Assembly (NCBI GenBank): GCA_031425655.1
Contig: JANPJS010000149.1
Coordinates: forward strand, 1 to 20,018
Length of the DNA stretch: 20,018 nucleotides
Direction of reading: 5' to 3'
From: Abditibacteriaceae bacterium
GTDB taxonomy: Bacteria > Armatimonadota > Abditibacteriia > Abditibacteriales > Abditibacteriaceae
In this document: positions 1 to 16,425 of the stretch, one piece after another
How positions within the stretch are numbered: the stretch's first letter is position 1
Layout of the letters: each line of letters opens with the position of its first letter
The notes under the pieces: generated by a model
What the model was told of the DNA's origin: nothing
Seen by the model: only the letters and a program-made list of their open reading frames with translations
The model's database searches: none
Translations under genes and position numbers: made by a program

Positions 1-674
1 GCGATGGCGTGACCGATGCCCGCGCTCAAGCCGCGCAGCCGCGCCCGATTGAGCTGCACTTCGATGTAGTTGCGCGCACTGATTTGCGAAGTGTGCGCTT
101 CCATCGAGGCTTTCCACGTTGCGACAGTTTCTGAAACATCCACTAAAATCGGCGTGATGTCGTGCGGTTCGGCTTCGAGTGAAACGGCGTAAAAGAAGAG
201 TTGCGTAATCGAATGCGGCGCGAACTCGCGCAATTCCTCAACGCCGCCGTAACGCGCAAGGCGGGCGGCGTCACGCACTAAGCGGCCCAGGCGAGCGTGA
301 TCGGGATGCTGGTTTTCGACCACGCTCGGCGCAAAAACAAGGGCCGGTTTAAGGCGCCGAATAAGAGAAGCTATTTTCAAGGCGTGAGCGGTGCGAACTT
401 CCAGATGAGCATCGCCATCCAGTTCGAGAAATTCCAGCGTTGCCCCTAAAATTTCTGCGGCATGTTGCGATTCTGTGGTGCGAATTTCGGGCGTGCCGTA
501 AGTTCCGGCCTCGCCGCGCGAACAAACGACCATGTGAACGGGCCTTCCGGCGCGTGTTTCCGAAGTGATCACGCCGCCGCATCCAAACTCGATGTCGTCG
601 GGATGCGCTCCAAAAGCCAAAAGCGACGGCAAATCGGCAGCGGTATCAATCGGGAAATTGGGTGTAGGCTTCAT
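1..674 (-). CDS. PIG-L/LmbE-family N-acetylglucosaminyl deacetylase, BshB1-like (3' end runs off the window)
   Basis: Absent from the ORF track because there is no stop in the window. Manual translation from ATG 674: MKPTPNFPIDTAADLPSLLAFGAHPDDIEFGCGG...VVCSRGEAGTYGTPEIRTTES...ENQHPDHARLG...RARLRGLSAGIGHAI. It has the AHPDD and HPDH zinc-deacetylase motifs. The start is uncertain (TTG near 632 is an alternative). Confidence 0.85.
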   Translation of the reverse strand, partial: MKPTPNFPIDTAADLPSLLAFGAHPDDIEFGCGGVITSETRAGRPVHMVVCSRGEAGTYGTPEIRTTESQHAAEILGATLEFLELDGDAHLEVRTAHALKIASLIRRLKPALVFAPSVVENQHPDHARLGRLVRDAARLARYGGVEELREFAPHSITQLFFYAVSLEAEPHDITPILVDVSETVATWKASMEAHTSQISARNYIEVQLNRARLRGLSAGIGHAI

Positions 675-1419
675 TCAAATGCTCAATCGGGTCGCGCGGC
701 ACATAAGTAATTTCGGGGGCATCGTCTTGGCGCAGATATGCTTGTTCGCCAGCTCCGCACACGTAATGCGTGCAACCAACAACCGATTGCATCCACGTCA
801 GGCGCGTGTCACGCGCCGGACTCACTTGCTCTTTCGTAAAAGCCGTCGGCGGCAGGCTCACGAACGAATCGCCGCCTTCGTGCAGAGTGAAAGCCTCGTT
901 GCCGTAGCGGGCACGCACGATTTCACCCTGATACGGAACGTCCACGAAAAAGTCCGGCACCTCGCAAGCGGCGCGGCGAAATGCGGCATCACTCGAACGC
1001 ACGACGCGAATGCCATCAAGCAAGCCCATAAATTCATACATTTGCAGGCAAAAATCCGCGACATTTGTCAACGCAGCGCTTTGGAAGGCTTCTACGGCGC
1101 GCGAATCCAAATAATCGGGCAAGCGCCGCAAGGTTTTCTCTTTCCATTCGGGCAAGACGCGCTTCAAATGTAAAGGCGTAAATTTGCGTTGAATCTTGTT
1201 GGCGAAAGCGAAGTTCATTTCGCAGGCGGCGCCGGAATCGTGGCGATGGAGAATGGTTTTTGTTTCGCGCGGATCATGATCGCTATCGTGGTAGAAAAAG
1301 ACGATTTCTCCGCCGATTTCGCTTTGCAGACGCCGCGCCGCCGTGAATTTGGCAACGAGAAAGCGCTTCGGAAAAAACCCGCACGGCTGCTGGCCAAAAC
1401 AAATAATCGGGTCGCTCAT
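646..1419 (-). CDS. Short BshC-like protein (putative cysteine-adding ligase, Rossmann core only), 257 aa
   Basis: ATG 1419 overlaps the symporter stop (ATGA). Motifs FGQQPCG..AK, IVFFYHDSDHDPRE and SPARDTRLTWMQSVV..HYVCGAGEQAY occur in the same order as the BshC motifs I recall: GQQxG..K, VFWxAxEDHDxxE and FSxxVxxRPLxQ...GPGExxY. Confidence 0.65.
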   Translation of the reverse strand: MSDPIICFGQQPCGFFPKRFLVAKFTAARRLQSEIGGEIVFFYHDSDHDPRETKTILHRHDSGAACEMNFAFANKIQRKFTPLHLKRVLPEWKEKTLRRLPDYLDSRAVEAFQSAALTNVADFCLQMYEFMGLLDGIRVVRSSDAAFRRAACEVPDFFVDVPYQGEIVRARYGNEAFTLHEGGDSFVSLPPTAFTKEQVSPARDTRLTWMQSVVGCTHYVCGAGEQAYLRQDDAPEITYVPRDPIEHLNEAYTQFPD

Positions 1420-3131
1420 CGAAGAGAATCGCTTTCCTCTTTCGGAGAATTTTGGCCCAACATCGCCTGAAAAATCAGCGCAATAACCATGCACATCGCG
1501 CAGCCGATGATGTTATACCAGAGGTAACTGATCTTGAGCACGTTGTAAAGCACGAAAACCAGCAGTTGCGCCACAATGGCCGCCCAGAAAATCGCCGTTC
1601 CTCCGATGCGCCGCACGAAGAACGCTACCAAAAACATCGCCAGAACTACGCCGTAAAAAATCGAACCTAAGATATTGACCGCTTCGATTAAATTCTCGAC
1701 CATATTGGCGAAAAGCGCGAAGCCGATGGCGACAAGGCCCCAGAAAATCGTGAAATAGCGCGAAGCCTTCACATAATGGGCATCTTCGGCGTCGCGTTTC
1801 ACCAGATGACGATAAAGGTCAACGGTTGTCGTCGAACCCAGCGCGTTCAATTCGGCGGCTTTGGAAGCTAAAGTTGACGAGAAAAAGACCGCAATCAACA
1901 AACCGATTAAACCGTGCGGCAAGTGACGCAAAATGAAAGTGATGAAAACGTAATCGGAATCGCTGGCTTTGGCATCGGGAGTAGCTTTTTGCAGCGCCTT
2001 TTTGGCTTCGGCGCGAATATCTTCGCTGCGTTTATGCGCTACTAAAGCCGCCGCGCGCGTTTTGACTTCTAATTCCGGGTTAGTGCCGTGTTTGGCTTCG
2101 AGCCACCGGCGAATGGCGGCTTCTTTTTCGATGTGCGAGGCGTCGAACTTCTTTTCCAGCGAACGCAGTTGGCCGTCTGAATCCTGCGCCAAAGCCGCTT
2201 TCCATGCGGTTTCGTTGAAGAAAACCGGCGGTTTATCGAACTGATAGAACACAAAAAGCAAAGCGCCCAGCAGCAAAATAAAGAACTGCATCGGAATCTT
2301 GCAAACGCCGTTGAACATCAGCCCCAGACGGCTTTCGCGCAAAGACGCACCGGAAATATAACGCTGAACCTGCGATTGATCCGTCCCGAAATACGAAAGC
2401 GCCAAAAACATTCCGCCTAATAGGCCCGACCAAAAGGTGTAGCGCTTATCCGGGTTTAATGAGAAATCTACCGCTTCCAGCTTGTTGAATCCGCCCGCCA
2501 CAACAAACGCATCTGGCAAAGTGATTTGCGATTGTAATCGCACGAGTAAAACGACAAAAGCCGCTGCCATGCCCGCGAAAATAACGCCTAATTGATACTT
2601 TTGCGTATGACTGACGGCGTCGCTGCCACCAGCGACCGTATAGGCAATCACGACCAGACCGCTGCAAATAATCGTCGCGTCCAACCTCCAGTTCATTACG
2701 GTCGAAAGCACAATCGCGGGCGCATAAATGGTGATGCCCGCGCCCAGTCCGCGCTGCAAAAGAAAGAGAGCGGCGCCCAGCAAGCGCGTTTTAGTATCGA
2801 AGCGCTGTCCGAGAAATTCGTAGGCGGTATAAACCTTAAGGCGCCGGTAAATCGGCAGGAAGAAAACCGAAATGATAATCAGCGCGAAGGGCGCGCCGAA
2901 GTAATTTTGCACAAAGCCGAGGCCGTCTTCGTAGCCCTGCCCCGGCGTCGAAAGAAAAGTAATGGCGCTGGCCTGCGTAGCCATGACGGACAGGCCAATA
3001 ACCGGCCAATTCGTGTCGCCCACACCTTTCAAATAAGTGTTGAGGTCACGGCGGCCCCGCGTGCGCCACACGCCGTAAACCGCGATGCTGAGGATCGTGC
3101 CGAGCAGCACCAAGTAATCAAGCAGATTCAA
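1416..3131 (-). CDS. Sodium:solute symporter (SSS family), about 571 aa
   Basis: Many hydrophobic helices and SSS motifs (SVMATQASAITFLSTPG, TAYEFLGQRFD, YFGTDQSQVQRY, GLIGLLIAVFFS). The likely start is TTG 3131, overlapping the upstream stop (TTGA), rather than 3212. Confidence 0.92.
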   Translation of the reverse strand: MNLLDYLVLLGTILSIAVYGVWRTRGRRDLNTYLKGVGDTNWPVIGLSVMATQASAITFLSTPGQGYEDGLGFVQNYFGAPFALIIISVFFLPIYRRLKVYTAYEFLGQRFDTKTRLLGAALFLLQRGLGAGITIYAPAIVLSTVMNWRLDATIICSGLVVIAYTVAGGSDAVSHTQKYQLGVIFAGMAAAFVVLLVRLQSQITLPDAFVVAGGFNKLEAVDFSLNPDKRYTFWSGLLGGMFLALSYFGTDQSQVQRYISGASLRESRLGLMFNGVCKIPMQFFILLLGALLFVFYQFDKPPVFFNETAWKAALAQDSDGQLRSLEKKFDASHIEKEAAIRRWLEAKHGTNPELEVKTRAAALVAHKRSEDIRAEAKKALQKATPDAKASDSDYVFITFILRHLPHGLIGLLIAVFFSSTLASKAAELNALGSTTTVDLYRHLVKRDAEDAHYVKASRYFTIFWGLVAIGFALFANMVENLIEAVNILGSIFYGVVLAMFLVAFFVRRIGGTAIFWAAIVAQLLVFVLYNVLKISYLWYNIIGCAMCMVIALIFQAMLGQNSPKEESDSLR

Positions 3132-3295
3132 GCGAACACTCTCGATAATATAGTGAGTAAAAGCACATAAATTAGGAAAACGATGACTACAAACCTGTAA
3201 ACACTGCTCCAAGTGGGCAGAAGTGGCAGGCTGGTGCCGTCGTCTTCGGGAGTCGGGGGAACGTCAACTTTTGGTGAATGAGGATCGAAGTTCAT
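3128..3295 (-). CDS. 55-aa single-TM membrane protein, probable accessory subunit of the symporter
   Basis: MNFDPHSPKVDVPPTPEDDGTSLPLLPTWSSVYRFVVIVFLIYVLLLTILSRVFA. It fills the gap exactly, with ATGA and TTGA overlaps to its two neighbours. Confidence 0.75.
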   Translation of the reverse strand: MNFDPHSPKVDVPPTPEDDGTSLPLLPTWSSVYRFVVIVFLIYVLLLTILSRVFA

Positions 3296-5796
3296 CGGCC
3301 CAGCGACACCAAATTCGCAAGAAGGCGATAAGCGCCCGGCACTCCGGCAGGAAGTTGGCGAAAGAAGGCCAGCCCCGTATAAACGAAGTTGCCCCGACCA
3401 TGTGGAGCCACCAAAAGCCCGCCTTTGAGCGCTTCTTCGCCCGCATCGCCCGCTGCCAATAAAGGCGTAAAGCGCGCGTCCCACTGGCTTGGATAGTAAA
3501 TGCCGCGCTCTTGAACCCAGCCCTCAAAATCAGCCTGAGTAATCTTGTTGGGCGTATTAAACGCAGGATGATCCGGCGCCAGCAGAGTCACGGGCGCGTT
3601 CTCGTTTGTCACGCGCAATCCCGATAGCGCGAGATCAAACGGCGCGATTTGCTTGACTTGCAGATTATTGGGCCGATTGTATTGGGCGATGACATTTCCG
3701 CCACCTTCGACATAAGCAAACAAACCGGCCAAGCCGCCAGCCAAATCGGTTCGCACATTAAAAGCGCGCACGCCGATGACAACGGCATCGAAGCGACGCA
3801 GGCGTTCCGGGGCTAAATCCGCGCCCGATAACGACGTGACGACATAACCCATTTCTTCGAGTGCAGCCGCTACGCTGTCACCTGCGCCGGGCAAATAACC
3901 GACTTCGCGGCCACGAATGGCCAGATCAAGAACAATCGCTTTCAGCCGCGCCGGTGATTGAACTATGAGCCGGGGAATATGCGCGTAATTGATTTCCACG
4001 CGCTGCGTGTCAATCTGTTTTCCATCCACTTCGGCCCGCGCCGTGATATTCGCTGAGATTGCTCGATTGGGCGCTGTGACGTTGAACGAAAGTCGTGCGC
4101 GTTCGCCACTTGCGGCAAGGCGAAACGCCTGTGTCGCCGGCTCAACTTTCCAATCTGCCGGCAAATCTAACCGAAGCCAACCGGAAGTATTGGCACGCGA
4201 AGCAACGACTTCGACGATTACGGGCCGGGAAGCGCCGGGCGCAAAAAGACGCACCTCGCTGGTAAGATGCAGCGATACCGGCGCAATAATTTCCAAGCGC
4301 CTGCGTGATTCGCCTTTATTCGGGTCGGTGAGAACCTGCACCGGCTCGTCGTCTAAGGTTATGCGCTGGCCGCCAATCTCAAAGATGTGTTGCACCACAA
4401 AAGGCGGCGCATTTTCAGCCTGACCGATCAACTTTGGGTCAGTGACACGCGCCATGCCTGCCGTCGGCTCGTCGCGCAGCCAGTAGGGTTGGCTCAGGGA
4501 CATTTCGGGTAACAACTGCAATGTTTCGCGCGTCGCCGCTACTCTCGGCTTCAATGGAATCATCTCAGACACCTGAGCGCCATTCGCCGGGTATTTCACC
4601 GCCAACCACTTGACAGGCACAGCAGAGCGCGCTGTTGCCGCATGACGCAGGTTCATCTTATCGCCGGACACGACTCCGGCTTGAGGAACAATTGTTTCAA
4701 CGGTCAGGCCGACGCAATGCCCGATAATCAGGTCAAGGTCGCGGCGTTTTTCCTCCACGATGGAATCGGCGGGTAGGGCATTCAATCGGGTGCGGAGTTG
4801 CAAAAGTGCGGGGATGCTGGCGTCAGGCTTGTTTTGGTCAAAGGCGGCCAGAACTTCGTTCGCCGAACGGGCAACGTCGGCCCCGCCCGGCACGCGGTTC
4901 CAGGTGCTGTCCACACCTTCCAAAATGTCTTTGGTTGCCGGTTCGCCGCCCAAAAGCTGAAAGGTTTCCGCTCGCGCTTCGCCGGCTGTGTAACCGGCAA
5001 AACCCTGACTGATATGCATGGCGCGGCTACGCTCGGCGATTTTCGTGAACGGCTGACCAAGCACGGGATCAACGCCGCTGATGTCCATTTGCAACGCGCC
5101 GGCTCCGCGCCCATTCTGCAAAATTCTCTTTGGCTGCCAAGTTTTCAGTGCGCCCAGTTGCTCCGGGAATGCTTTGGCATCACCGGCCAGCTTAAAGGCT
5201 TCAACCGCTAAAACAGCCGAAGCGGTGTGGTGCCCATGCGTGCCGCCGGGTTCAGGCGAAAAGCGAGTAATGATAACGTCGGGGCGAAAGGTGCGAATGA
5301 TGCGAACGACATCCGCCAACACCTGCTGATGATCCCAGATATTGAGGGTTTCGCGGTAATCTTTGGAGAATCCAAAGTCCAGCGCGCGTGTGAAGAATTG
5401 CTGTGCGCCATCAAGTCGTCGTGCCGCCAAAAGCTCCTGAGTGCGAATCATGCCGAGCTGCGCGCCGAATTCGCCGCCAATCACGTTTTGGCCGCCATCG
5501 CCGCGCGTCAGGGAAAGATAAGCGGTGCGATAAGCCCGTCCTCGCGCCAGATAAGTAATGAGTTGAGTGTTTTCATCGTCGGGATGAGCCGCGACGTAAA
5601 GCACGCTACCCATCTCACGAAAACGGCGAAGTTCCTGTTGAATCGCAACGCCCGACGGCGATGCTTCAGCCGCCGCAGGGCGTTGTCCCACAAGCGCAGC
5701 GCACAGCACAGCCGCGATTACAGGAAATTTAGGAAGAGAACTTTTCAGGGCGCTCCGGTAGCGATTGAGCGACACGAACGACTTGATAATAAACAT
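3292..5796 (-). CDS. Large exported PIG-L/LmbE-family deacetylase with a NEW3/Ig-like domain and a C-terminal class I glutamine-amidotransferase-like domain
   Basis: Signal-like N-terminus (VIAAVLCAALVGQRPAAA), AHPDDE, TRGDGGQN, R..E...AR and HGHH motifs. An Ig-like segment (LRLDLPADWKVEP) precedes a GATase-like tail (FDAVVIGVRA..YVEGGGNVIAQY..GAYRLLANLVS). The start is uncertain (TTG 5802, ATG 5796 or later). Confidence 0.88.
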   Translation of the reverse strand: MFIIKSFVSLNRYRSALKSSLPKFPVIAAVLCAALVGQRPAAAEASPSGVAIQQELRRFREMGSVLYVAAHPDDENTQLITYLARGRAYRTAYLSLTRGDGGQNVIGGEFGAQLGMIRTQELLAARRLDGAQQFFTRALDFGFSKDYRETLNIWDHQQVLADVVRIIRTFRPDVIITRFSPEPGGTHGHHTASAVLAVEAFKLAGDAKAFPEQLGALKTWQPKRILQNGRGAGALQMDISGVDPVLGQPFTKIAERSRAMHISQGFAGYTAGEARAETFQLLGGEPATKDILEGVDSTWNRVPGGADVARSANEVLAAFDQNKPDASIPALLQLRTRLNALPADSIVEEKRRDLDLIIGHCVGLTVETIVPQAGVVSGDKMNLRHAATARSAVPVKWLAVKYPANGAQVSEMIPLKPRVAATRETLQLLPEMSLSQPYWLRDEPTAGMARVTDPKLIGQAENAPPFVVQHIFEIGGQRITLDDEPVQVLTDPNKGESRRRLEIIAPVSLHLTSEVRLFAPGASRPVIVEVVASRANTSGWLRLDLPADWKVEPATQAFRLAASGERARLSFNVTAPNRAISANITARAEVDGKQIDTQRVEINYAHIPRLIVQSPARLKAIVLDLAIRGREVGYLPGAGDSVAAALEEMGYVVTSLSGADLAPERLRRFDAVVIGVRAFNVRTDLAGGLAGLFAYVEGGGNVIAQYNRPNNLQVKQIAPFDLALSGLRVTNENAPVTLLAPDHPAFNTPNKITQADFEGWVQERGIYYPSQWDARFTPLLAAGDAGEEALKGGLLVAPHGRGNFVYTGLAFFRQLPAGVPGAYRLLANLVSLGR

Positions 5797-5802
5797 ACGC
5801 AA

Positions 5803-6357
5803 TTACTTCTTGACTGTGAAATGCACCGAGTATTGCGTGTTTTCCCACATCATTTTCAGCACTCCGCTGTTGGCATCGGCCCCTCTTTCGACCGCCATCG
5901 TGAACTGATCAATGGCGTTTGGCAGCGTGTCCTTCTTTAAATCAACACGAACGAGGTCTTGCTTCTCGTCATACTGCCCGCCCCATTGACCAACTTGCTT
6001 GCTGATAATCAGCTTGGCCGTTCCGTCTGCTGCAGGCAGCGTGAAAAGCGTGACCGCACCGGCAGGGATTGTCGTGCCGCCTACGTCAATCGGCTGCTGT
6101 GTGACCAGCATCGTCGCTTCGTTAGCGCCAGTGCGCCACACCTGGCCAAAAGGCACAAGGCCGCCCCAAATTTTGCGCGCGGCGCCGGTTTTGGGGTCTT
6201 TGGTAAACGGACGGCTGTAGTAAACCGTGACACGATTGCCGGCGACAACGGTGCCGGAAATGTCGGGCGGGCTGACGCGCTTTTGCTGTGCCATCAGCGG
6301 CACCGAAGCGACTAACAGGGTGGCTGCGGCGCAGCCCAGAAACTGACGTTTATTCAT
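5803..6357 (-). CDS. DUF2911-like exported protein, 184 aa
   Basis: ATG 6357 with an AGGAGA RBS and a signal peptide. Motifs RVSP, VYYSRP, IWGGLVPFGQVWRTGANEAT, IPAG..LFTLP, QWG..YD..QDLVRV and MWEN are typical of DUF2911. Confidence 0.85.
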   Translation of the reverse strand: MNKRQFLGCAAATLLVASVPLMAQQKRVSPPDISGTVVAGNRVTVYYSRPFTKDPKTGAARKIWGGLVPFGQVWRTGANEATMLVTQQPIDVGGTTIPAGAVTLFTLPAADGTAKLIISKQVGQWGGQYDEKQDLVRVDLKKDTLPNAIDQFTMAVERGADANSGVLKMMWENTQYSVHFTVKK

Positions 6358-6451: not shown

Positions 6452-6898
6452 CCTCATATTGGCAGCCGCGAGGCCCGCGACGAAGAAGTTGTTTTGTCGC
6501 AGCCTCTTGATCTCTTTGGCAAGCGCCGGGCGCAGGCGGGTGTCGCTGCTGCCGGATTGCGCCGCGCCGAGGCAGACGCCACGCTGTCCGAGCGGTCACT
6601 GGTGGTGCAGGTCAAAAATGCCGCCGCCGACCTATATGCCGCGCAGGAAGCCGAATCGTTGGGAGAAGTTCAAGTCGAAGTGGCCGTGCTGTTCCGTGAC
6701 GCCGCCGCGCGCCGTGCCCAGCTTGGCGATGTGCCACTGGTTCAAGTGCAGCGCGCCGATTTGGAACTCTTGCATGTGCAAAACGAGCTGACGAATGCTC
6801 AGGCCGAGCGTTTGGCGCGTCAGGCCGCGCTCACTCAATTGATCGCGCAGCCGCCCGAAACCCCGCTGCGCGTGGCCCTGCCGCTTGCCACCGGAGCG
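6452..6898 (+). pseudogene. Internal fragment of a TolC/CzcC-family outer-membrane efflux protein
   Basis: PHIGSREARDEEVVLSQPLDLFGKRRA...AARRAQLGDVPLVQVQRADLE...QAALTQLI is one OEP repeat. There is no signal peptide, RBS or second repeat, and the frame runs into a palindromic element at 6901. Confidence 0.75.
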
Positions 6899-6900
6899 GT

Positions 6901-6971
6901 TGTCATTCCGAGTGGAGAGGGCGCCCGTTTTGCTCGTGCCTCGTCCTGCCCCGCCTACGCTCGGAATGACA
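6901..6971. repeat. REP/MITE-like palindromic element
   Basis: Perfect 12-bp inverted repeat TGTCATTCCGAG (6901-6912) / CTCGGAATGACA (6960-6971), extending imperfectly inward. Confidence 0.7.
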
Positions 6972-6996
6972 CGTTTCTGTTGTCCTGAAAATCCTA

Positions 6997-7010
6997 ATGC
7001 GATTGCCCTG
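6997..7010 (+). mobile_element. Possible isolated IS end (ISAs1-like terminal inverted repeat)
   Basis: ATGCGATTGCCCTG (reverse complement CAGGGCAATCGCAT) resembles ISAs1-family termini as I recall them. It directly abuts the point where adaptor-like coding sequence begins. No transposase or partner end was seen. Confidence 0.35.
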
Positions 7011-7301
7011 ACCCGCGCCCTCATAGACAACCCCGGCCCGCTGCGACCCGGAATGTTCGCGCGCGGCCAAATCCAGACTGGCCTCGGCCAGTTGTCTCTC
7101 ACGGTTCCTGCATCCGCCGTGTTGGAAGACGGCGCGGCCAAAGTCGTCTTCGTGGCCCAAGGCGGCAAATACCAGCGGCGCGAGGTGACAATTGGCAACG
7201 AAAGCAATGGGCGCATTGAAGTCAAGAGCGGCTTGAAACAGGGCGAAACCGTAGTCACTGACGGCGCGCCCTCCCTGCGCGCTCAAGCCGCAAAATCGTA
7301 A
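7011..7301 (+). pseudogene. C-terminal fragment of an RND periplasmic adaptor (CusB/CzcB-like MFP)
   Basis: TRALIDNPGPLRPGMFARGQI...VPASAV...VFV...RREVTIG....IEVKSGLKQGETVVTDGA is the beta-barrel end and membrane-proximal domain only. Confidence 0.8.
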
Positions 7302-7322
7302 TTCTCAAGGAGATTGGAAGAA

Positions 7323-8426
7323 ATGAAGCACATCAAATTGTTGATAGCCTTGTCCGCCGTTTTGGGTATTGGCCTGCTGGCCGGATGCGGTTCGCAAAAC
7401 GGCGGCACAACGGAAACCGCCACGACAGAAACAGGCTCGCAAACCATCGCCAAAAGCGGCGCGCCCGAAGGCAGCAGCGCGCAGGAAGCGGCAGCTAAAA
7501 CCGGCGAACATCACGCCGATGAAGCAGAAGCCGCCAAGACCCACACGCACAGCACTAAGCTGGCTTTCAGCAGCGAACCGGCAGCCTTGCCTGTCGGCAA
7601 GGCCGCGACGTGGACGCTGAAAATCGCCGATGCCCAAAGCGGGCAGCCGGTCAAGAACTTTGATGTCGTCCACGACAAGCTGATGCATTTGATCGTGGTG
7701 AAAAACGACCTGTCGTGGTTCAACCACATTCATCCCACTCACAAGGGCAATGGTAGTTTTGTCGTCACGACGACCTTGCCAAAGGCCGGCACCTACAAGC
7801 TCTACGCCGACTATACACCCACAGGCAAGGCGCAAGAGGTGCCGCAGCATGAGTTCGCTACCGGCGGCGCGCAGCCGGCGCCAAGCTCGGTGCTTTTGGT
7901 GCCCGACAAAATGCAGGGCGCGTGGATGACCAAAAAAGTCATCGCGCATCCCGAAGGCGAGCCGGAAACCAAAGGCGGCGCGACCTACGAGGTCGCTCTG
8001 ATGCCCATGCCAATGCCGCTCTTAGCCGGTCAGGATTCGATGCTGCACTTCCAAGTCCGCGACGCCAAAGGCCAGCCGATTAAAGATTTGCAGCCTTATC
8101 TCGGCGCGCTGGGCCATTGCGTGATTTTGTCCAGCGATACCAAAGGATATTTGCACTCGCACCCGATGGAAGGTGGCGCCAAGCATGACATGAGCAAGAT
8201 GGGCGACATGAAAAGCATGAAGCACAGCGCGCCTCCCAAGAGCGGCGGGCCGGATGTTATGTTCCACACCAACTTCCCGTCGGCGGGGCTTTACAAGGCG
8301 TGGGGCCAGTTCATGCACAAGGGAAAAATCATCACAGCGGCTTTCGTGGTCAAAGTCGGCGCCGCCAAAATCAGCGCAGCCTCAGACGGCCACAACCACG
8401 ACGAATCGAAGCCGCATTCGCATTGA
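7323..8426 (+). CDS. His/Met-rich two-domain lipoprotein, putative periplasmic copper/heavy-metal-binding protein
   Basis: AAGGAG RBS, ATG 7323 and lipobox LLAG-C. Two related domains (HDKLMHLIVV..DLSWFNHIHP and YLGALGHCVILS.D..YLHSHP), a Met-rich loop KHDMSKMGDMKSMKH and a His-rich tail. Confidence 0.75.
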   Translation: MKHIKLLIALSAVLGIGLLAGCGSQNGGTTETATTETGSQTIAKSGAPEGSSAQEAAAKTGEHHADEAEAAKTHTHSTKLAFSSEPAALPVGKAATWTLKIADAQSGQPVKNFDVVHDKLMHLIVVKNDLSWFNHIHPTHKGNGSFVVTTTLPKAGTYKLYADYTPTGKAQEVPQHEFATGGAQPAPSSVLLVPDKMQGAWMTKKVIAHPEGEPETKGGATYEVALMPMPMPLLAGQDSMLHFQVRDAKGQPIKDLQPYLGALGHCVILSSDTKGYLHSHPMEGGAKHDMSKMGDMKSMKHSAPPKSGGPDVMFHTNFPSAGLYKAWGQFMHKGKIITAAFVVKVGAAKISAASDGHNHDESKPHSH

Positions 8427-8427
8427 T

Positions 8428-8518
8428 TTTGAACCACAGAGACACAGAGAAGAAAGAGAAAGCTTTGGGCCTGAACCCAAACTTAATTCTCAAAATCTCT
8501 GTGTCTCTGTGGTTCAAA
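8428..8518. repeat. Long intergenic palindrome (REP/MITE-like hairpin)
   Basis: Perfect 23-bp inverted repeat TTTGAACCACAGAGACACAGAGA (8428-8450) / TCTCTGTGTCTCTGTGGTTCAAA (8496-8518), with nested inner stems GAGAA/TTCTC and TTTGGG/CCCAAA. Confidence 0.85.
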
Positions 8519-8541
8519 TAATGATTACTTCAGGAGACAAA

Positions 8542-8904
8542 ATGAAGTTACAAAAGACAGCCGCCCTCGCAGTGGGCGCGTTCCTCTCGACAGCCGTCGT
8601 CGCGCCGCAAATCGCTTTCGTGCACGGCAAGGCAAAGCACAAAGACCAGCACGCCACCGTGACCGTTGATGGCAACGGATACCATCCGGCGACGCTGAAC
8701 CTCAAAGGCGGCAAGCCGGTTCATTTGACCTTTGTCAGCAAAGGCAAGGGCTGCGCCAATGCGGTCAGCATTCCTTCGCTGAAAAAGACGTTCAACCTCA
8801 AGCCGGGCCAGAAGAAGGAAATCGTTTTCACGCCGAAAAAAGGACAGACCGTCGCGTTTGCCTGCTCCATGAATATGTTCAAGGGCAAAGCGGTAGCGAA
8901 GTAA
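8542..8904 (+). CDS. Exported cupredoxin-domain protein (CupA-like), 120 aa
   Basis: AGGAG RBS, ATG 8542 and signal peptide. The pattern GYHP..L..GKPV.LTF....C...V.IPSL...FTP...FACSMNMFKG supplies Cys, Cys, Met, Met ligands. Confidence 0.85.
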   Translation: MKLQKTAALAVGAFLSTAVVAPQIAFVHGKAKHKDQHATVTVDGNGYHPATLNLKGGKPVHLTFVSKGKGCANAVSIPSLKKTFNLKPGQKKEIVFTPKKGQTVAFACSMNMFKGKAVAK

Positions 8905-8957
8905 TTTTTCGTGCGCCCAACACCGCCCGCTTCGCCCAACAGATTATCCATTGGCTC

Positions 8958-8986
8958 TTGGCGCTTATACCCATGTGGGGTATATT
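8958..8986 (+). promoter_or_regulatory. Sigma70-type promoter for csoR-copA
   Basis: TTGGCG (8958-8963), a 17-bp spacer and TATATT (8981-8986), overlapped by the first operator. Confidence 0.7.
8966..8984. promoter_or_regulatory. CsoR operator 1
   Basis: TATACCC-ATGTG-GGGTATA is the C/G-tract palindrome typical of CsoR operators, directly upstream of csoR. Confidence 0.85.
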
Positions 8987-8996
8987 CTCTTAGTGA

Positions 8997-9013
8997 ATAC
9001 CCCTCATGGGTAT
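8997..9013. promoter_or_regulatory. CsoR operator 2
   Basis: ATACCC-CTCAT-GGGTAT is a second copy, centred 30 bp downstream of operator 1. Confidence 0.82.
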
Positions 9014-9043
9014 ATAAGCAAGCCTGAACTGGAGGAAACCCTT

Positions 9044-9334
9044 ATGGACGACGAATCGCGCAAAAAGGTGAAATCGCGCACAAACCGCATTGCCGGCCAG
9101 GTCGCCGGCATTCAGAAGATGATTGACGAAGACCGTTATTGCGTTGACATCTTGAATCAGATTTCTGCGGTGCGCTCGGCGCTGGACGCGCTGGGATTGG
9201 AACTGCTGGGCAAGCATCTGGAAGGGTGCGTTTTGGGACACGGCACCGACTCAGAACACCACTGCGCCAAGCCGCTGAGCGAGGAAGAATTGGTGGCGGA
9301 AATGCAGACGGTGATCGCACGATTTTTGAAATAA
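9044..9334 (+). CDS. csoR: Copper-sensing transcriptional repressor, CsoR/RcnR family, 96 aa
   Basis: GGAGG RBS and ATG 9044. RIAGQVAGIQKMI..RYCVDILNQISAVRSAL...HLEGCV carries the Cys-His-Cys ligand set. Confidence 0.92.
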   Translation: MDDESRKKVKSRTNRIAGQVAGIQKMIDEDRYCVDILNQISAVRSALDALGLELLGKHLEGCVLGHGTDSEHHCAKPLSEEELVAEMQTVIARFLK

Positions 9335-9352
9335 GAACAGGAGGTGAAACCA

Positions 9353-11863
9353 ATGGCAACAGCAACAAATACCAAAGTGACAGACCCGGTTTGTGGGATG
9401 GAGATCAACTCGAAGGACGCGGCAGGACGCAGCGATTTTGGTGGCGCAAGCTATTTCTTTTGCTCTGATTCGTGCAAAGCGAAGTTTGACGCCGACCCGA
9501 CTCAATATGCCGTTGAAGAAGCTGGCGAGGAGCATGATGTCTCCGCCACTGAAGACAGCGCGACAATGGAAGGCGGCACAGAGCGATGCGATTTGCCGCT
9601 TCTGGGGATGCACTGCGCCGCTTGCGCGGGGCGCATCGAGAAGGTGTTGAACAAAACGCCGGGTGTTGAGAAGGCGAGCGTGAACTTTGCCACGACGCGC
9701 GCCACGGTGCATTACGACGCGGCGCAGACCGATCCCATGCAGTTGCGCGCGGCGGTGCAGAAGGCCGGCTACGACGCCATCGTGCCGGAGCCAGCTTCGG
9801 AAGATGCCGGGCTGGATGAATCGTCCAACGCTGAAACGCAGGCGCGCGAAGCAGAATACAACGCGCAAAAGCAGAAGTTCACTATCGCTTTGGCGCTGAC
9901 GGTTCCCGTGCTTTTTCTGGCGATGGCGGGGCATTTGAACGCCTCATTGGAGCGGATGCTGAACTTCCCCGGTCGCGTCTGGCTGGAGATGATTTTAACC
10001 GCGCCGGTTTTGTTCTGGGCAGGCCGCGAATTTTTCACCGGCGCGTGGGCGGCGGCCAAACACCGTGCCGCCGACATGAACACGCTGATCGCCATCGGCA
10101 CCTTCGCCGCCTTTGCTTACAGCGCCGTGGCGACCTTCGCGCCGCAGATTTTCATGACGGCTAACAGTCATGCTGCAAGCGGTGGCCATGCCATGACGGC
10201 GGTCTATTATGAAGTGGCCGCCAGCGTGGTGACGCTGATTCTGATGGGCCGCTTGCTGGAAGCGCGGGCGCGGGCGCGCACATCGGGCGCTATTCACGCT
10301 TTGATGGGCTTGGCGCCCAAAACCGCGCGCGTCGAGCGCGACGGAGCAGAGCAGGATATTCCCATCAGCGCCGTGCTGGTCGGCGACATTGTTATCGTGC
10401 GCCCCGGCGAAAAAGTGCCGGTGGACGGCGAAATTGTGGACGGGCAATCGAGCGTGGACGAATCCATGCTGACCGGCGAACCGATGCCGGTGTCGAAGAA
10501 AGCTGGCGATACGGTTATCGGCGCGACGCTGAACAAGACGGGCACTTTTCGTTTTAAAGCGACCAAAGTTGGCAAAGACACGGTTTTGCAGCAGATCGTG
10601 CGTTTGGTGCAGGAAGCACAAGGCTCCAAAGCCCCAATTCAGCGCATGGCCGACCAGATTTCCGGTGTCTTCGTGCCGATTGTGATTTGCATTGCCATTG
10701 CTACCTTCATGGCGTGGTTCATCTTCGCGCCGGTTGAAAGCCGCTTAACCCTTGCCCTGCTCACCTTCGTTTCCGTGCTGATTATCGCCTGCCCCTGTGC
10801 GTTGGGATTAGCAACGCCAACCGCGATCATGGTGGGAACCGGGCGTGGGGCACAAAGCGGCGTGCTGATCAAAAGCGCCGAGGCTCTGGAAACCGCTCAC
10901 AAGCTGGATACGATTGTGCTGGACAAAACCGGCACCATCACCCAGGGAAAGCCTGCCGTCACCGACATTGTGGCGCAGGACATCGAAGAAAACGAGCTGC
11001 TGCGTTTGGCGGCTTCTGCCGAGCGGGGCAGCGAGCATCCGTTGGGCGAAGCCATCGTGCGCTCGGCGCAGGAGCGCGGCCTTAGCCTTTCGCAGCCGCA
11101 GGAGTTCAACGCCATCGCCGGGCATGGCATTGAGGCGACGGTGGACGGGCGCAAAGTCCTACTCGGCAACGCCAAATTGATGATGGAGCGCAATATCTCC
11201 GGTGGCAAAGACGAGGTTCGCAGTCTGGCTGAAGGCGGTAAAACCCCGATGCTGATCGCGGTGGATGGCCGTTTCGCCGGTATTATTGCGGTCGCTGATC
11301 CCATAAAAGAATCGTCACGCGCCGCGATTGAGCGTCTGCATCAGCTTGGTTTAGAGGTCGCCATGATGACCGGCGACAACCGCGCCACAGCGGAAGCCAT
11401 AGCGCGGCAAGTTGGCATCGAGCGGGTTTTAGCCGAAGTTCTGCCCGAAGGCAAAAGCGCCGAAATCAAAAAGCTGCAAGCCGAAGGCAAGCGCGTGGCG
11501 ATGGTTGGCGACGGCATCAACGATGCGCCGGCTTTGGCGCAGGCTGACGTGGGGATTGCGATGGGCAGCGGGACGGACGTGGCGATGGAAGCCGCCGACA
11601 TCACCTTAGTCAAGGGCGACCTGAACGGCGTGGCCTCCAGCATCGCACTCTCGAAGGCGACCATCCAAAACATCAAGCAAAACTTGTTCTTCGCCTTCAT
11701 TTACAACGTGCTGGGCATTCCCATAGCCGCAGGGTTACTTCATCCCTTCACCGGCTGGCTGCTCTCGCCGATTATCGCGTCCTTGGCGATGGCCTTGTCC
11801 AGTGTCAGCGTGGTCGGCAATGCGCTGCGCTTGCGCGGCTTCAAAGTGGAAAGGGGGGCCTGA
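9353..11863 (+). CDS. copA: Cu(I)-translocating P1B-type ATPase with N-terminal YHS and HMA domains
   Basis: AGGAGG RBS and ATG 9353. Motifs [14 protein letters not shown] (YHS), MHCAAC (HMA), [33 protein letters not shown] and MALSS identify the P1B-1 subtype. Confidence 0.96.
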
Positions 11864-12150
11864 TGGATACAGCCGAAATCTTCGTTCTTATTGGCGGCAC
11901 GCTTTTGATCGCCTTTACGCTCTGGTTTTTCTTTGGCAAGCGTGAAGAGGAAGCCGCCACTGTCACCGCCGAGGGAAAGCCGCTTTACGAGTGCCCGATG
12001 CACCCTTGGATTACCAGCACCGACCCCGCAGCCAACTGCTCGCTGTGCGGCATGAAGCTGGTGCGGCGCGGCGATGCCGGTGCGAAACACGAGGCTTTAC
12101 AGCAGGGACACGGCTCGCCGTCCTCTCATGGCTCAAAGCCGCATCACTAA
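11863..12150 (+). CDS. Small membrane-anchored heavy-metal-binding-domain protein, 95 aa
   Basis: TGATG overlap with copA. N-terminal TM helix ending WFFFGK, YECPMHP..ANCSLCGMKLV motif and His-rich tail. Confidence 0.85.
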   Translation: MDTAEIFVLIGGTLLIAFTLWFFFGKREEEAATVTAEGKPLYECPMHPWITSTDPAANCSLCGMKLVRRGDAGAKHEALQQGHGSPSSHGSKPHH

Positions 12151-12188
12151 ATCAGCAGACCACAACAGGCCAAACAGGAGATGAGGCA

Positions 12189-12761
12189 GTGGAAACTACT
12201 AAAGGCATAAAGTGCGGCGCGTGCATAAGCTATGTGGCGGAAGCTGGTGGGCGCGTTTTTTTACTGTTGTGGTTGGCCGCTCCTTGTATTGTGGCAGCAT
12301 CCGATGCGCGTCCTGTTGCACCGCTAAAACTTGGCGCTAAGCAGCCTGCCCAGATCATTTATCACAAGACCTTGGAAAAGGCGTTGAAGGCCGCGCAAAA
12401 GTCCAAGCGGCCCGTGCTGGTCTACTTCCATGCGGCGTGATGCAGCCCCTGCAAGGCGATGGAGCATAGGGTGTTAACCGATGCCCGCGTCGTTGGCGCC
12501 GCGAAGAAATGGGAGGCGGTGCGCGCCGATATGGACAAGGAAAGCTCACTGGCCGTGCGCCTGAAAGTGGAGCGTCCACCGACTCTGGTATTCCTGACGG
12601 CGCAAGGACGTGCCGCCGGGCGCCACGAAGGGTATGCCGAGGTTTCCGATGTTCTCAAAGTGCTGCGGGTCGCCCATGCCCAGGCCGCGCCGCAGAAGAG
12701 CCAAAAGCAAAGCAACCTGAAACAGCAGAAACGGGCCGCTCCGAACAAATCTTCCCATTAA
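12189..12761 (+). pseudogene. Exported thioredoxin-family protein interrupted by an in-frame TGA (12438-12440)
   Basis: AGGAG RBS and GTG 12189. ORFs 11991..12440 and 12459..12761 share a frame and read LEKALKAAQKSKRPVLVYFHAA*CSPCKAMEHRVL...VERPPTLVFL...RHEGY, a thioredoxin fold with the stop at the Trp position of WCxxC. Confidence 0.75.
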
Positions 12762-12772
12762 GGATCAATTTT

Positions 12773-13987
12773 ATGTTTGACACATTCGTTCACCACCGTT
12801 CAGTCCGCCGGGTCAGAGGTGTCTTGGGATGCCTCGGAGTTTTCATAGCAGCATGGTCGTCGTTGGCCTGCGCGCAGAATGCGCCTATTGTTACTGTTGC
12901 GCGGGTGCCCTCCGGCGGCATTCAACCGCAGATAATCGCCAAAAACGGCATCTATCATCTGGCTTATTTGAAAGGCGACCCGAAAGCCAACGACGTATTT
13001 TATGCGCGCTCGACGGACGGCCAGAATTGGAGCGCGCCGCTGCGCGTCAATTCGCAGCCGGGCAGCGCCATCGCGATGGGCACCATTCGCGGCGCTCACT
13101 TATCAGTGGGCCGCAACGGGCGCGTTTTCGTGGCGTGGAACGGCTCCGGCAGCGCGCAGCCGCGCCTCGATTTTGTGCCGGAAAGCGCGAAAAAATATGG
13201 CGCTTCACCGTTCTTGTTTTCGCGCTTGAAGGAAGATGGCAGTGCCTTTGAGCCGCAGCGCAACCTGATGACCAAGACCTTCAACCTGGATGGCGGCGGC
13301 TCCTTAGCCGCTGATGACGAAGGCCGCGTTTACCTGGTCTGGCACGCCAATGACAGGGATGGGCAGGACGAAGCCGGACGGCGGGTGTGGATCGCGCGCT
13401 CCAGCGATGACGGCGCGACCTTTAGCACCGAAACGCCGGTCTGGAACGAGCCGACCGGCATTTGCGGTTGCTGCCAAATGCGGGTTTTAGCAGAAAACGG
13501 CGGCACAGTCACACTCCTCTATCGCTCGGCAGGCGAAGTGGTCAACCGCGACACCTACGCGCTGGTTTCCAACGACAAGGGAGTCACCTTTCAGGGCCTC
13601 AAAATCCACGATTGGAAAATCGGCGCTTGCCCGATGAGCAGCTACTCTCTGATAAAAGACGGCGCACGCCTGTTGGCCGCCTGGGAAAGCGACAAGCAGG
13701 TTTTCTTAGCGCCGCTGGGCGCTGACATGAAGCCGCAGGGCATCGCGCCGGCACCCGGCAAAGGCGACAACCGCAAGCATCCTGTATTAGCCGCCAATAA
13801 GGACGGTCAGATTTTGATGGTGTGGACGGAAGGCACCGCCTGGGCACGCGGCGGCAGGCTGCGGTGGCAAGTCTTTGACGCGCAAGGCCGCGCCCTCGGC
13901 AAAGCCGGTGAACAAGATGGCTTGCCCGTTTGGAGTTACGCCACGGTGATAGCCGGTTTGGACGGGAAATTCACCGTTCTCTATTGA
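12773..13987 (+). CDS. Exported BNR/Asp-box (sialidase-like) beta-propeller protein with CGCC and GACP motifs, about 404 aa
   Basis: AAGGA RBS, ATG 12773 and signal peptide (..SSLACA-Q). Asp-boxes STDGQNW, SSDDGATF and SNDKGVTF, plus ICGCCQ and WKIGACPM. Confidence 0.8.
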   Translation: MFDTFVHHRSVRRVRGVLGCLGVFIAAWSSLACAQNAPIVTVARVPSGGIQPQIIAKNGIYHLAYLKGDPKANDVFYARSTDGQNWSAPLRVNSQPGSAIAMGTIRGAHLSVGRNGRVFVAWNGSGSAQPRLDFVPESAKKYGASPFLFSRLKEDGSAFEPQRNLMTKTFNLDGGGSLAADDEGRVYLVWHANDRDGQDEAGRRVWIARSSDDGATFSTETPVWNEPTGICGCCQMRVLAENGGTVTLLYRSAGEVVNRDTYALVSNDKGVTFQGLKIHDWKIGACPMSSYSLIKDGARLLAAWESDKQVFLAPLGADMKPQGIAPAPGKGDNRKHPVLAANKDGQILMVWTEGTAWARGGRLRWQVFDAQGRALGKAGEQDGLPVWSYATVIAGLDGKFTVLY

Positions 13988-14122
13988 ATTTGGTCGTCGG
14001 ATGGATGCTCTATAGAGATGTTCAAATCTGATAGATTCGGCCATTTAGCGGATGCCCGCATTCCGCGAAAACCCCAAAATATTCCTTGATGCCACAACCA
14101 CGGCATCGGGGAATGAATAGCC

Positions 14123-14635
14123 ATGCGGAACGTGCGAAAGGGCATTAGCAAGCAACCAAATATAGGAGCGCCGTTGGCGTTGCTGCTGGTTGCTCTGCTG
14201 GTCGTCGTGCATCCAGCATCGCAGTTGCTTTGCGTCTTCATGCCCTGCGGGGTGTTAGCCGCAGAGCATGCCAAGCAACCAGTGCGCGCGTGCTGCCGCA
14301 AAGACAAGGCCTCGCAGCCGACAACGGCTTCCTGCTGCAAGAAGAAGCAAGCCGCAAGCGATTGCAATCCGTTACCCGACAATAGCAGGCCGGATACAGC
14401 GTGCTGTGGCGACGCTCGGAATCACAATTATGTGAGCGGCAAGACACTGCGCCTTGCGCCCAAATTCTCGCATTGGCAACACGTTTCTTATCCTCTTGTC
14501 GCGGTGCTGCTGCCCAGCATGCCGGACGTTGCGCCGAAAGTCATCCGCCATACGCTGCGCGACGGCCCCAGTTCTCCACCGGCTTCGCCTTTTCTCCGTC
14601 CCGTGTTGGGACGCGCTCCCCCTGAGTTGGCTTGA
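14123..14635 (+). CDS. Cys-rich DUF2946/CutF/CruR-like leader protein with a C-terminal RAPP arrest motif, 170 aa
   Basis: N-terminal hydrophobic segment, 9 Cys (CVFMPC, three CC pairs, one single) and a Pro-rich C-terminus ending LRPVLGRAPPELA*. It lies upstream of exported metal-handling genes. Confidence 0.7.
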   Translation: MRNVRKGISKQPNIGAPLALLLVALLVVVHPASQLLCVFMPCGVLAAEHAKQPVRACCRKDKASQPTTASCCKKKQAASDCNPLPDNSRPDTACCGDARNHNYVSGKTLRLAPKFSHWQHVSYPLVAVLLPSMPDVAPKVIRHTLRDGPSSPPASPFLRPVLGRAPPELA

Positions 14636-14800
14636 TGGGCCTGCCTCGCGGCATTGCCCTGTTCGCCTCGGCCTGCCTCCGATTGCGGCTTTCGCTTGCG
14701 GAAGCCAGAGCGGGTTGAACGCAGAACGCAATCCACCGACGTTTGACGTTCGGGTGCGGCCCGATGGCACGCATCCACCCAAACCACAACTCAGGGAGTG
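14614..14800 (+). promoter_or_regulatory. Predicted anti-SD/SD long-range stem linking the RAPP codons to the RBS of the next gene
   Basis: CCCTGAGTTG (14620-14629) is the exact reverse complement of CAACTCAGGG (14787-14796). Pairing extends over GGGAGTG (14794-14800) with a 2-nt bulge and one G-U pair. Confidence 0.65.
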
Positions 14801-14806
14801 AGTGAA

Positions 14807-15559: not shown

Positions 15560-15569
15560 GCCTCAGCGA

Positions 15570-15610
15570 CACTCCACCGGCTACAGTGACAAACCGTAGC
15601 CGGTGGAGTG
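15570..15610. repeat. Intergenic 15-bp perfect inverted repeat (hairpin)
   Basis: CACTCCACCGGCTAC (15570-15584) / GTAGCCGGTGGAGTG (15596-15610). There is no U-tract, and a small CCCGT-TTCGG-ACGGG hairpin follows (15617-15631). Confidence 0.75.
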
Positions 15611-15652
15611 ATCGTTCCCGTTTCGGACGGGCACCAAGCGAAGGAGGCTGCC

Positions 15653-16420: not shown

Positions 16421-16425
16421 AGGCG

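Follow-up and report, generated by a model that had tools for sequence, protein, structure and literature searches.

An apparent variant of the bacillithiol system with a miniature BshC homolog and an exported PIG-L hydrolase

A seven-gene cassette in Abditibacteriaceae

The 20,018-nucleotide stretch of DNA analyzed here (hereafter the window), which is the entire contig C149 of an Abditibacteriaceae bacterium (assembly GCA_031425655.1), carries near its left end a cassette of tightly coupled genes, all on the minus strand, that apparently represents a real, conserved variant of the bacillithiol system hitherto undescribed in print. In operon order (Table 1), these genes encode a DUF2911 protein, a large exported hydrolase of the PIG-L/LmbE family, a membrane protein of 55 residues, a sodium:solute symporter (SSS), a 257-residue protein that we denote mini-BshC, and a BshB1-like deacetylase. 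The six open reading frames (ORFs) that had been delineated in an initial annotation of this DNA are all real, coupled and co-oriented. However, the operon consists of seven genes rather than the six originally proposed because the left end of the window overlaps the contig C106, on which the BshB1-like gene terminates and bshA is the next gene of the operon.

The description of the junctions as overlaps or gaps of a few bases holds for four of the five in the window but not for the BshB1-like gene, which overlaps the mini-BshC gene by 29 nucleotides. Three of the junctions are four-nucleotide stop/start overlaps, namely, ATGA between the large PIG-L gene and the 55-residue ORF, TTGA between the latter and the SSS gene, and ATGA again between the SSS and mini-BshC genes; the stop codon of the DUF2911 gene is separated from the ATG of the large PIG-L gene by a 6-nucleotide gap that shrinks to 0 if an alternative in-frame TTG at position 5802 is used. 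A scan of the locus for promoters and terminators returned counts at chance level.

Mini-BshC and the bacillithiol synthesis enzymes

At the level of sequence, mini-BshC is inconspicuous: there is no match to any Pfam or NCBIfam model, no search of PDB sequences links it to BshC, the PF10079 model finds nothing in the host genome (97% complete), and 3 of 48 members of the mini-BshC family reach an E-value of just 0.022 with that model. The relationship becomes apparent upon comparison of structures. The AlphaFold model of mini-BshC is compact (pLDDT 95) and retrieves, as the top Foldseek match, the Bacillus subtilis BshC (4WBD; E 1.6e-10); the VIA-align superposition of the two has a Z-score of 20.4 and a root-mean-square deviation of 2.5 over 238 residues with 13% identity, spanning residues 82-518 of the chain, and the runner-up among 48,161 chains is class I lysyl-tRNA synthetase, with a Z-score of 14.3. 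In a language-model atlas, mini-BshC falls with the Rossmann clusters of BshC at 0.91. Thus aligned, mini-BshC is the Rossmann/HUP-type core of BshC, minus the first 80 residues and the majority of the insertions and, judging by length, also minus the long coiled coil. The BshC motifs GQQ..G..P....K, DHD..E, G-x-x-E-x-x-Y and a subsequent arginine have, by eye, counterparts in G9-Q10-Q11, D47-H48-D49, G222-E225-Y228 and R242 of mini-BshC; these motifs presumably line the active site of BshC.

The best 120 of 6,837 homologs of mini-BshC, in a search limited to 141-450 residues, are 255-287 residues long, and an unrestricted search contained nothing longer than 475 residues among the best 150 of 264. 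A truncated or broken bshC can be rejected given the uniform length of the homologs (about 257 residues) and the compact model. A few full-length relatives (P0246, P0247, P0250, P0255 and P0286; 32-44% identity) are divergent, with altered GQQ and HDSDHD motifs. Taken together, the modeled fold and the complementary distribution with canonical BshC described below identify the 257-residue protein as a miniature BshC that quite likely ligates cysteine. The previous description of this protein as BshC-like is thereby upheld, by structure alone and at half the canonical size.

The assignment of BshA is straightforward, with a TIGR03999 score of 402.8 bits (cut-off 273.7) and strong similarity to solved structures (E 1e-92 to 2JJM and 2e-90 to the B. 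subtilis BshA, 5D00). The BshB1-like protein scores 142.7 bits with TIGR04001 over the truncated 224 of its 247 residues, below the cut-off of 182.5, and so do its full-length homologs from other cassettes (116-140 bits). Still, TIGR04001 is the best model for this protein, its position in the operon also fits BshB1, its best solved relatives are BC1534, TT1542 and the BshB1 structure 6P2T, and the HPDD and HPDH motifs are kept.

The exported hydrolase, the symporter and their small companions

The large PIG-L protein (PF02585 above the cut-off) consists of a signal peptide (residues ~1-43), the PIG-L domain (61-300), a helical linker, a beta-sandwich, Ig-like region (~365-625) and a C-terminal domain resembling class I glutamine amidotransferases (GATase; 628-834). 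In its structural model (pLDDT 87), the PIG-L domain aligns with LnmX and MshB with VIA-align Z-scores of 19.3 and 19.1, and the C-terminal domain adopts the class I GATase fold (Z 17.1 to STM3548, 16.1 to a ThuA-like protein and 15.2 to the glutaminase domain of GMP synthetase). Seven residues, H71, D73, D74, R118, D140, H187 and H190, the last two within H187-G-H-H190, are invariant in the 65 aligned sequences. Enzymes of the LmbE group, in the account given in the pertinent part of PMC4101496, combine an HXDD+H metal motif with Arg, Asp and His residues that contact the substrate; mapped by motif, H71, D73, D74 and H190 correspond to the former and R118, D140 and H187 to the latter. The GATase-like domain is not an ordinary glutaminase because it lacks a conserved nucleophilic cysteine: residues 625-834 contain no cysteine at all, and the only common cysteine column of the family (position 782, 44 of 65 sequences) is not kept here, whereas Q705-Y706-N707 at the presumed nucleophile elbow are invariant. 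The equivalog cut-offs for Mca (43.8 versus 277 bits) and BshB2 (24.6 versus 195 bits) are not reached by the large PIG-L protein, which is also far below those for MshB and BshB1. A hydrophobic leader, detected with a hydropathy rule and not with SignalP, is present in 52 of 58 homologs.

The SSS protein scores above the PF00474 cut-off and reaches 206.6 bits with TIGR00813 (cut-off 184). Its closest solved relatives are anion carriers, namely, SMCT1 (E 3e-42), SMVT (4e-39), 5NV9 (6e-36) and NIS (3e-32); the similarity to vSGLT is weaker (3e-20). In 77 of the 80 loci introduced below, the SSS gene is located upstream of mini-BshC at a distance of no more than 9 kb. All 65 loci in which the large PIG-L and SSS genes are within 700 nucleotides of each other contain the 55-residue ORF, and the small proteins share a G-x-P-x(2-4)-W-x3-Y motif ahead of the helix. 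Small genes precede other SSS transporters as well and, by analogy, the 55-residue protein is a probable partner subunit of the symporter.

The DUF2911 protein has, by eye, an N-terminal Sec-type signal peptide, and its homologs have hydrophobic N-termini throughout; a Tat signal, suggested by the KRQFL stretch, is ruled out because it is not common to the homologs. Upstream of the large PIG-L gene (L020-L088), DUF2911 genes are often found in tandem, as a short form (about 185 residues) and a long one (about 290 residues). The language-model atlas offers just one unnamed cluster, at 0.80, and we found nothing that would support the assignment of a function to DUF2911 that the initial annotation had anticipated.

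Conservation and phyletic distribution

A scan of GTDB genomes with mini-BshC yielded at least 558 related loci, of which the best 80 were kept; judging by their titles, these come mostly from Verrucomicrobiota but also from Planctomycetota, Melainabacteria/Obscuribacterales and Abditibacteriaceae, the last group comprising the nearest named relatives. Where more than 6.5 kb of upstream flank is available, the SSS gene is present in 53 of 53 loci, and the large PIG-L and DUF2911 genes in 52 each; where the downstream flank exceeds 3 kb, bshB1 and bshA are found in 56 and 60 of 63 loci, respectively. The cassette appears to be self-contained because, once shadow frames are set aside, no additional gene family is seen in six or more of these loci.

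The distribution of the cassette is patchy: mini-BshC was detected in 2 of the 121 host-phylum genomes, in 10 of 201 when the sample was centered on a Verrucomicrobiota genome and in 27 of 61 in a Melainabacteria family, the latter two counts including the center genome, which was picked for carrying mini-BshC. Within the 201-genome sample, bshA was found in 11 genomes, of which 10 have mini-BshC and one (G195) canonical BshC; among the 121 genomes of the host phylum, the 10 with bshA divide into two with mini-BshC and eight with canonical BshC, the PF10079 search having covered 10 genomes plus that of the host rather than all 121. Hence, in both samples, each bshA genome has either mini-BshC or canonical BshC, never both, and no canonical BshC was detected in ten more mini-BshC genomes (one of these, G121, also belongs to the 201-genome sample). 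The 2-Mb genome of G195 harbors a methyltransferase-bshC-bshB-bshA operon along with YpdA and BrxA/B, and is possibly capable of N-methyl-bacillithiol synthesis.

The large PIG-L protein matches mini-BshC genome for genome (10 of 10 in the 201-genome sample and 27 of 27 in the Melainabacteria family) and is kept even where the operon is split (G305, G335 and G336); the SSS gene stays beside mini-BshC even in loci where the remainder of the cassette has moved (L010 and L012). In the host phylum, the large PIG-L protein is present in 7 of 121 genomes, six of these with bshA. The initial annotation had named, as a finding that would tell against a thiol connection, the occurrence of the symporter, PIG-L and DUF2911 trio mostly in genomes lacking bsh genes; in the samples searched, the large PIG-L protein instead coincides with bshA, in 10 of 10 genomes of the Verrucomicrobiota-centered sample and 6 of 7 of the host phylum. 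In four genomes of the host phylum, the large PIG-L gene belongs to a separate clade and stands alone, with neither SSS nor DUF2911 genes in the flanks examined, and canonical bshC is located elsewhere in the genome. Solitary genes of this clade (L117-L119, in G042, G015 and G055) come from a single family of that phylum, in which BshC is of the canonical type and YpdA is present. Among 38 metagenome loci, six with low GC content combine PIG-L and SSS genes with no bsh gene in the stretch examined, as do L172 and L179; canonical bshC was not found in any of the 38.

The BshB1-like gene is the one that can be dispensed with. Among the 27 mini-BshC genomes of the Melainabacteria family, bshB1 adjoins mini-BshC in 18, is cut by a contig end in two and is absent in seven, and in all seven bshA directly follows mini-BshC; the same arrangement is seen in 5 of the 38 metagenome loci and in L025 and L028. 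Three of the seven genomes contain no TIGR04001 match at E<=1e-12, and the small PIG-L proteins encoded elsewhere in three of the seven score only about 62 bits. The direct succession of mini-BshC and bshA suggests that the exported enzyme together with the symporter can supply glucosaminyl-malate (GlcN-malate), but the number of independent losses is small.

In quick trees, which contain many open forks and, in the case of the hydrolase, omit three loci without a long ORF, the mini-BshC sequences from outside Verrucomicrobiota nest, with weak support, among those from Verrucomicrobiota. This nesting, combined with the patchy distribution, suggests that horizontal transfer of the cassette is likely.

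The usual redox partners of bacillithiol are mostly absent. Neither YpdA nor BrxA/B scores over its cut-off in any of 21 mini-BshC genomes, several of which are incomplete (there is one near match for YpdA, in G122, with 306.5 versus 339.9 bits), compared with 5 of 9 and 3 of 9 canonical-BshC genomes, respectively. GshB was not found in the host genome, which leaves a thiol role open for the product of the cassette.

Distant homologs of the hydrolase in lyase clusters

A search of plasmids with the large PIG-L protein gave 33 records, of which 30 were listed and 22 match over the full architecture, with 29-37% identity. An ArgH-like lyase is encoded within about 7 kb of the hydrolase in all 22, and in the three loci that we inspected, these genes are accompanied by an ABC importer, a ROK protein and a PfkB or NagK-like kinase; two of the hydrolases, both alphaproteobacterial, have no leader, and the one from Bacillus has it. 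Another 14 lyase records lack the hydrolase. Of the four that were examined, the Roseomonas cluster encodes a ROK kinase and a NagB-II-like protein (313 bits, below the cut-off of 430), those from Shinella and Deinococcus include sugar ABC genes, and the one from Haladaptatus contains neither sugar ABC genes nor the ROK kinase/NagB-II-like pair. Four clusters of this kind (from Aminobacter, Bacillus sp. F19, Parasedimentitalea and Roseomonas; Table 1) show a ROK regulator, an ABC importer, an ArgH-like lyase that is annotated as argH, and a sugar kinase with either the large PIG-L or the NagB-II-like protein.

A fumarate-eliminating lyase, an amino-sugar kinase and a deaminase make up the set needed to consume GlcN-malate, as glucosamine plus fumarate, so the plasmid clusters read as a putative catabolic route for GlcN-malate or bacillithiol. 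If so, two unrelated contexts, one of synthesis and the other of catabolism, would converge on glucosaminyl-malate as the product of this hydrolase family.

A proposed mechanism and its alternatives

The presence of bshA in the operon points to synthesis with probable salvage, and not to salvage alone; a salvage system without synthesis can accordingly be rejected. The earlier proposal of an operon for import and salvage of a low-molecular-weight thiol is therefore retained in part: there is strong support for the connection with bacillithiol and, in place of salvage alone, the cassette is a synthesis pathway to which an exported module is attached. On balance, it appears somewhat more probable than otherwise that the cassette makes bacillithiol or a close variant and recovers the sugar-malate core from outside the cytoplasm. 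Under this scenario, BshA, for which the family assignment is secure, would couple UDP-GlcNAc with L-malate; the BshB1-like protein would likely remove the acetyl group; and mini-BshC, in place of canonical BshC, would add cysteine to GlcN-malate. The exported, predicted zinc hydrolase would then cleave, at the acyl-glucosamine amide, the thiol, its disulfide or an S-conjugate that is present in the periplasm or comes from neighboring cells, probably also accepting N-acetylglucosaminyl-malate (GlcNAc-malate), and the symporter with its small partner would import GlcN-malate, coupled to Na+, for religation, with the DUF2911 protein as a putative exported accessory. We infer this salvage mechanism from indirect evidence: the signal peptides, the intact zinc site, the proximity of the symporter to anion carriers, the missing YpdA and Brx, and the lyase and kinase context of the distant homologs.

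In a bolder version, which we regard as possible but doubtful as a whole, the thiol would be renewed by periplasmic cleavage, re-import of GlcN-malate and rebuilding by a minimal ligase instead of reduction by YpdA; the exported enzyme would replace BshB in some lineages; and the same hydrolase family would elsewhere feed a catabolic route (amidase, fumarate-eliminating lyase, sugar kinase and deaminase) consuming GlcN-malate derived from bacillithiol.

Several observations weigh against the synthesis and salvage scenario. With respect to the ligase, the stretch preceding DHD differs, by eye, between BshC (W-x-A-[TS]-E-D-[HD]-D) and mini-BshC (F-[YC]-H-D-S-D-H-D), so the donor or the product of mini-BshC could differ as well, and the hhalign comparison of the two families falls short of significance, with probabilities of 0.3% and 2.7%, GQQ and DHD nevertheless being in register. 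The 80 loci contain no recurrent exporter gene that would account for the exit of the thiol from the cytoplasm. YpdA is also missing from 4 of the 9 canonical-BshC genomes, and the absence of YpdA and Brx fits a non-thiol product equally well. In the host phylum, the large PIG-L protein is encoded by one genome (G075, 85% complete) in which neither bshA nor bshC was found; conversely, five bshA/bshC genomes (G195 and four from the host phylum) lack it, so bacillithiol synthesis does not generally depend on this protein. Counts from related genomes are not independent of each other. As for the catabolic clusters, 9 of the 22 plasmid homologs are near-copies from Aminobacter, the lyase-linked hydrolases form a distant, separate, long-branched clade in the tree, and all three lyases that were tested score above the regular argH cut-off.

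Four alternatives deserve consideration. First, the exported enzyme could be mainly a GlcNAc-malate deacetylase of the synthetic route, such that the intermediate exits, is deacetylated outside and returns via the symporter, the finished thiol not being the main substrate. The dispensability of bshB1, with 7 of 27 mini-BshC genomes of one family lacking the cassette-type gene, is in line with this possibility, and so is the persistence of the symporter beside mini-BshC after rearrangement. However, bshB1 is retained in most of the loci with full flanks, the cassette has no recurrent exporter, and an unrelated small PIG-L protein could substitute for BshB1, the way MshB/Mca and BshB/Bca do according to the relevant portion of PMC5790435. 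We consider this alternative, which is compatible with the synthesis and salvage scenario rather than exclusive of it, to be unlikely as the main function.

Second, mini-BshC might attach a group other than cysteine, in which case the product would be a new N-acyl-glucosaminyl-malate rather than a redox thiol, and the exported module would turn it over. The low similarity to BshC at half the length, the family-specific invariant residues H44, D45 and F42 in place of A, T/S and W in BshC, and the lack of YpdA and BrxA/B scores over the cut-off in all 21 genomes speak in favor of such a product. Its improbability, in our assessment, stems from the one-for-one replacement of canonical BshC by mini-BshC among bshA genomes, from the counterparts, by eye, of GQQ, DHD..E, G-x-x-E-x-x-Y and the subsequent arginine, and from the missing GshB.

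Third, the module could act on the thiol with the symporter carrying the cysteine-side product or the intact thiol instead of GlcN-malate. The nearest carriers of carboxylates and other anions are varied in specificity, which is compatible with this version, but the catabolic clusters pair the hydrolase mostly with a sugar-type ABC importer and downstream enzymes that act on the amino sugar, and the symporter is linked most tightly to the enzyme that would consume GlcN-malate, so we view it as quite unlikely. Finally, it is most improbable that DUF2911, the large PIG-L protein, the small protein and the symporter constitute a unit for scavenging amino sugars that has no relation to the thiol and merely travels with bsh genes: notwithstanding the PIG-L and SSS pairs without adjacent bsh genes in the eight loci mentioned above (several of these contigs are short) and the catabolic context of the distant hydrolases, the co-occurrence holds genome for genome even after rearrangement, stop/start codon overlaps run throughout the cassette, and the separate hydrolase clade is also found in bshA/bshC genomes of the host phylum.

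Flanking genes

Directly downstream of bshA, C106 carries transposase-like remains that mark the right border of the cassette and that we take to be IS630-like. On the other side, in the window, short, apparently degenerate pieces of an outer-membrane efflux protein (PF02321) and a probable efflux adaptor are split by a palindromic repeat that is also present on many contigs. These are followed by a heavy-metal island, probably for copper, that encodes a YtkA-like lipoprotein, a P1B ATPase with YHS and HMA domains, a BNR-repeat protein and a 1006-residue RND adaptor with YtkA and cupredoxin domains.

Table 1. Coordinates of the cassette genes, their surroundings and the gene clusters discussed (window positions unless a contig or locus is named)
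Feature	Position	Strand	Remarks
DUF2911 gene	5803..6357	-	184 aa; PF11138, 134 bits, E 4e-39
Exported PIG-L/LmbE hydrolase gene	3292..5796	-	834 aa from ATG
Small membrane protein gene	3128..3295	-	55 aa, single helix
SSS gene	1416..3131	-	571 aa from TTG
Mini-BshC gene	646..1419	-	257 aa
BshB1-like deacetylase gene	1..674 (to window edge)	-	247 aa; last 23 codons on contig C106
Exact overlap with start of contig C106	1..141		141-nt identity
bshA	C106, about 183/231-1394, outside window		TIGR03999 match
Transposase-like remains	C106, about 1560-2519	-	ORF 2139-2519
Efflux remnants	6494-7301	+	
Palindromic repeat within efflux remnants	near 6955-7013		
Heavy-metal island	7314-20018	+	
ORF, presumably CsoR-like	8951-9334		in metal island
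P1B ATPase gene	9344-11863		in metal island
Presumable start of RND pump	19443-		in metal island
Aminobacter cluster	L100:1902-12373		
Bacillus sp. F19 cluster	L101:1-12484		
Parasedimentitalea cluster	L102:2136-12346		
Roseomonas cluster	L114:3666-12511		
Methyltransferase-bshC-bshB-bshA operon of G195	L099:738-4068		

Implications and comparison with known systems

In the titles and openings of abstracts through which we followed the literature, with few subscription journals represented, no short BshC, no such cassette and no extracytoplasmic or catabolic turnover of bacillithiol is described. For Verrucomicrobia and Planctomycetes, the pertinent passages of one survey (Hiras et al. 2018, PMC6282198) give no documented or predicted low-molecular-weight thiol. 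As outlined in their texts, both this survey and one from 2025 (PMC12719100) required BshC homologs of similar length; the latter applied filters of length and identity and does not mention Verrucomicrobia or Planctomycetes in its main text. The supplements of both surveys may list genomes with partial pathways. Being 257 residues long and 13% identical, mini-BshC would fail the filters of both. The BshC reaction itself had not been reconstituted as of 2018, according to the section of a review that deals with it (PMC5790435).

On the basis of the cassette, a thiol is predicted for some lineages of Verrucomicrobia and Planctomycetes (10 of the 201 genomes) and for Melainabacteria (27 of 61). 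The half-size BshC marks the dispensable parts of the canonical enzyme and presents a simpler protein for assay. If the proposed salvage is real, it would be a first route by which bacillithiol is turned over outside the cytoplasm, and would provide a pathway context for DUF2911, for a subfamily of SSS transporters and for a large family of 830-residue PIG-L proteins.

The cassette resembles the bacillithiol pathway BshA-BshB1/B2-BshC of Bacillus subtilis, Chlorobiota, Bacteroidota and Deinococcota in combining BshA, a BshB1-like zinc deacetylase and, third, a protein with the core fold of BshC. It differs from the canonical pathway in that the ligase consists of 257 rather than about 540 residues and is missed by PF10079, in that the hosts (Verrucomicrobiota, Planctomycetota, Melainabacteria and Abditibacteriaceae) mostly lack YpdA and BrxA/B, and in that four envelope genes are included within the operon. 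Compared to the BshC structure 4WBD, mini-BshC is devoid of about 200 residues of the spanned range, among them, we infer, the dimerizing coiled coil, and the W, A and E of the second motif are changed. The large hydrolase shares the PIG-L fold, the HXDD+H motif and the Arg, Asp and His positions with Bca (BshB2), Mca and other LmbE/PIG-L proteins; however, the characterized Bca and Mca are small and cytoplasmic, whereas this protein of 834 residues has a signal peptide and additional Ig-like and GATase-like domains. The symporter, unlike the anion carriers SMCT1, SMVT, NIS and 5NV9, has an insertion of about 90 residues and a probable small partner protein. In glutathione salvage, a periplasmic gamma-glutamyl transpeptidase is combined with uptake. 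The route proposed here would work in a similar manner, with the thiol cut outside the cytoplasm and a building block re-imported, albeit with unrelated proteins and chemistry.

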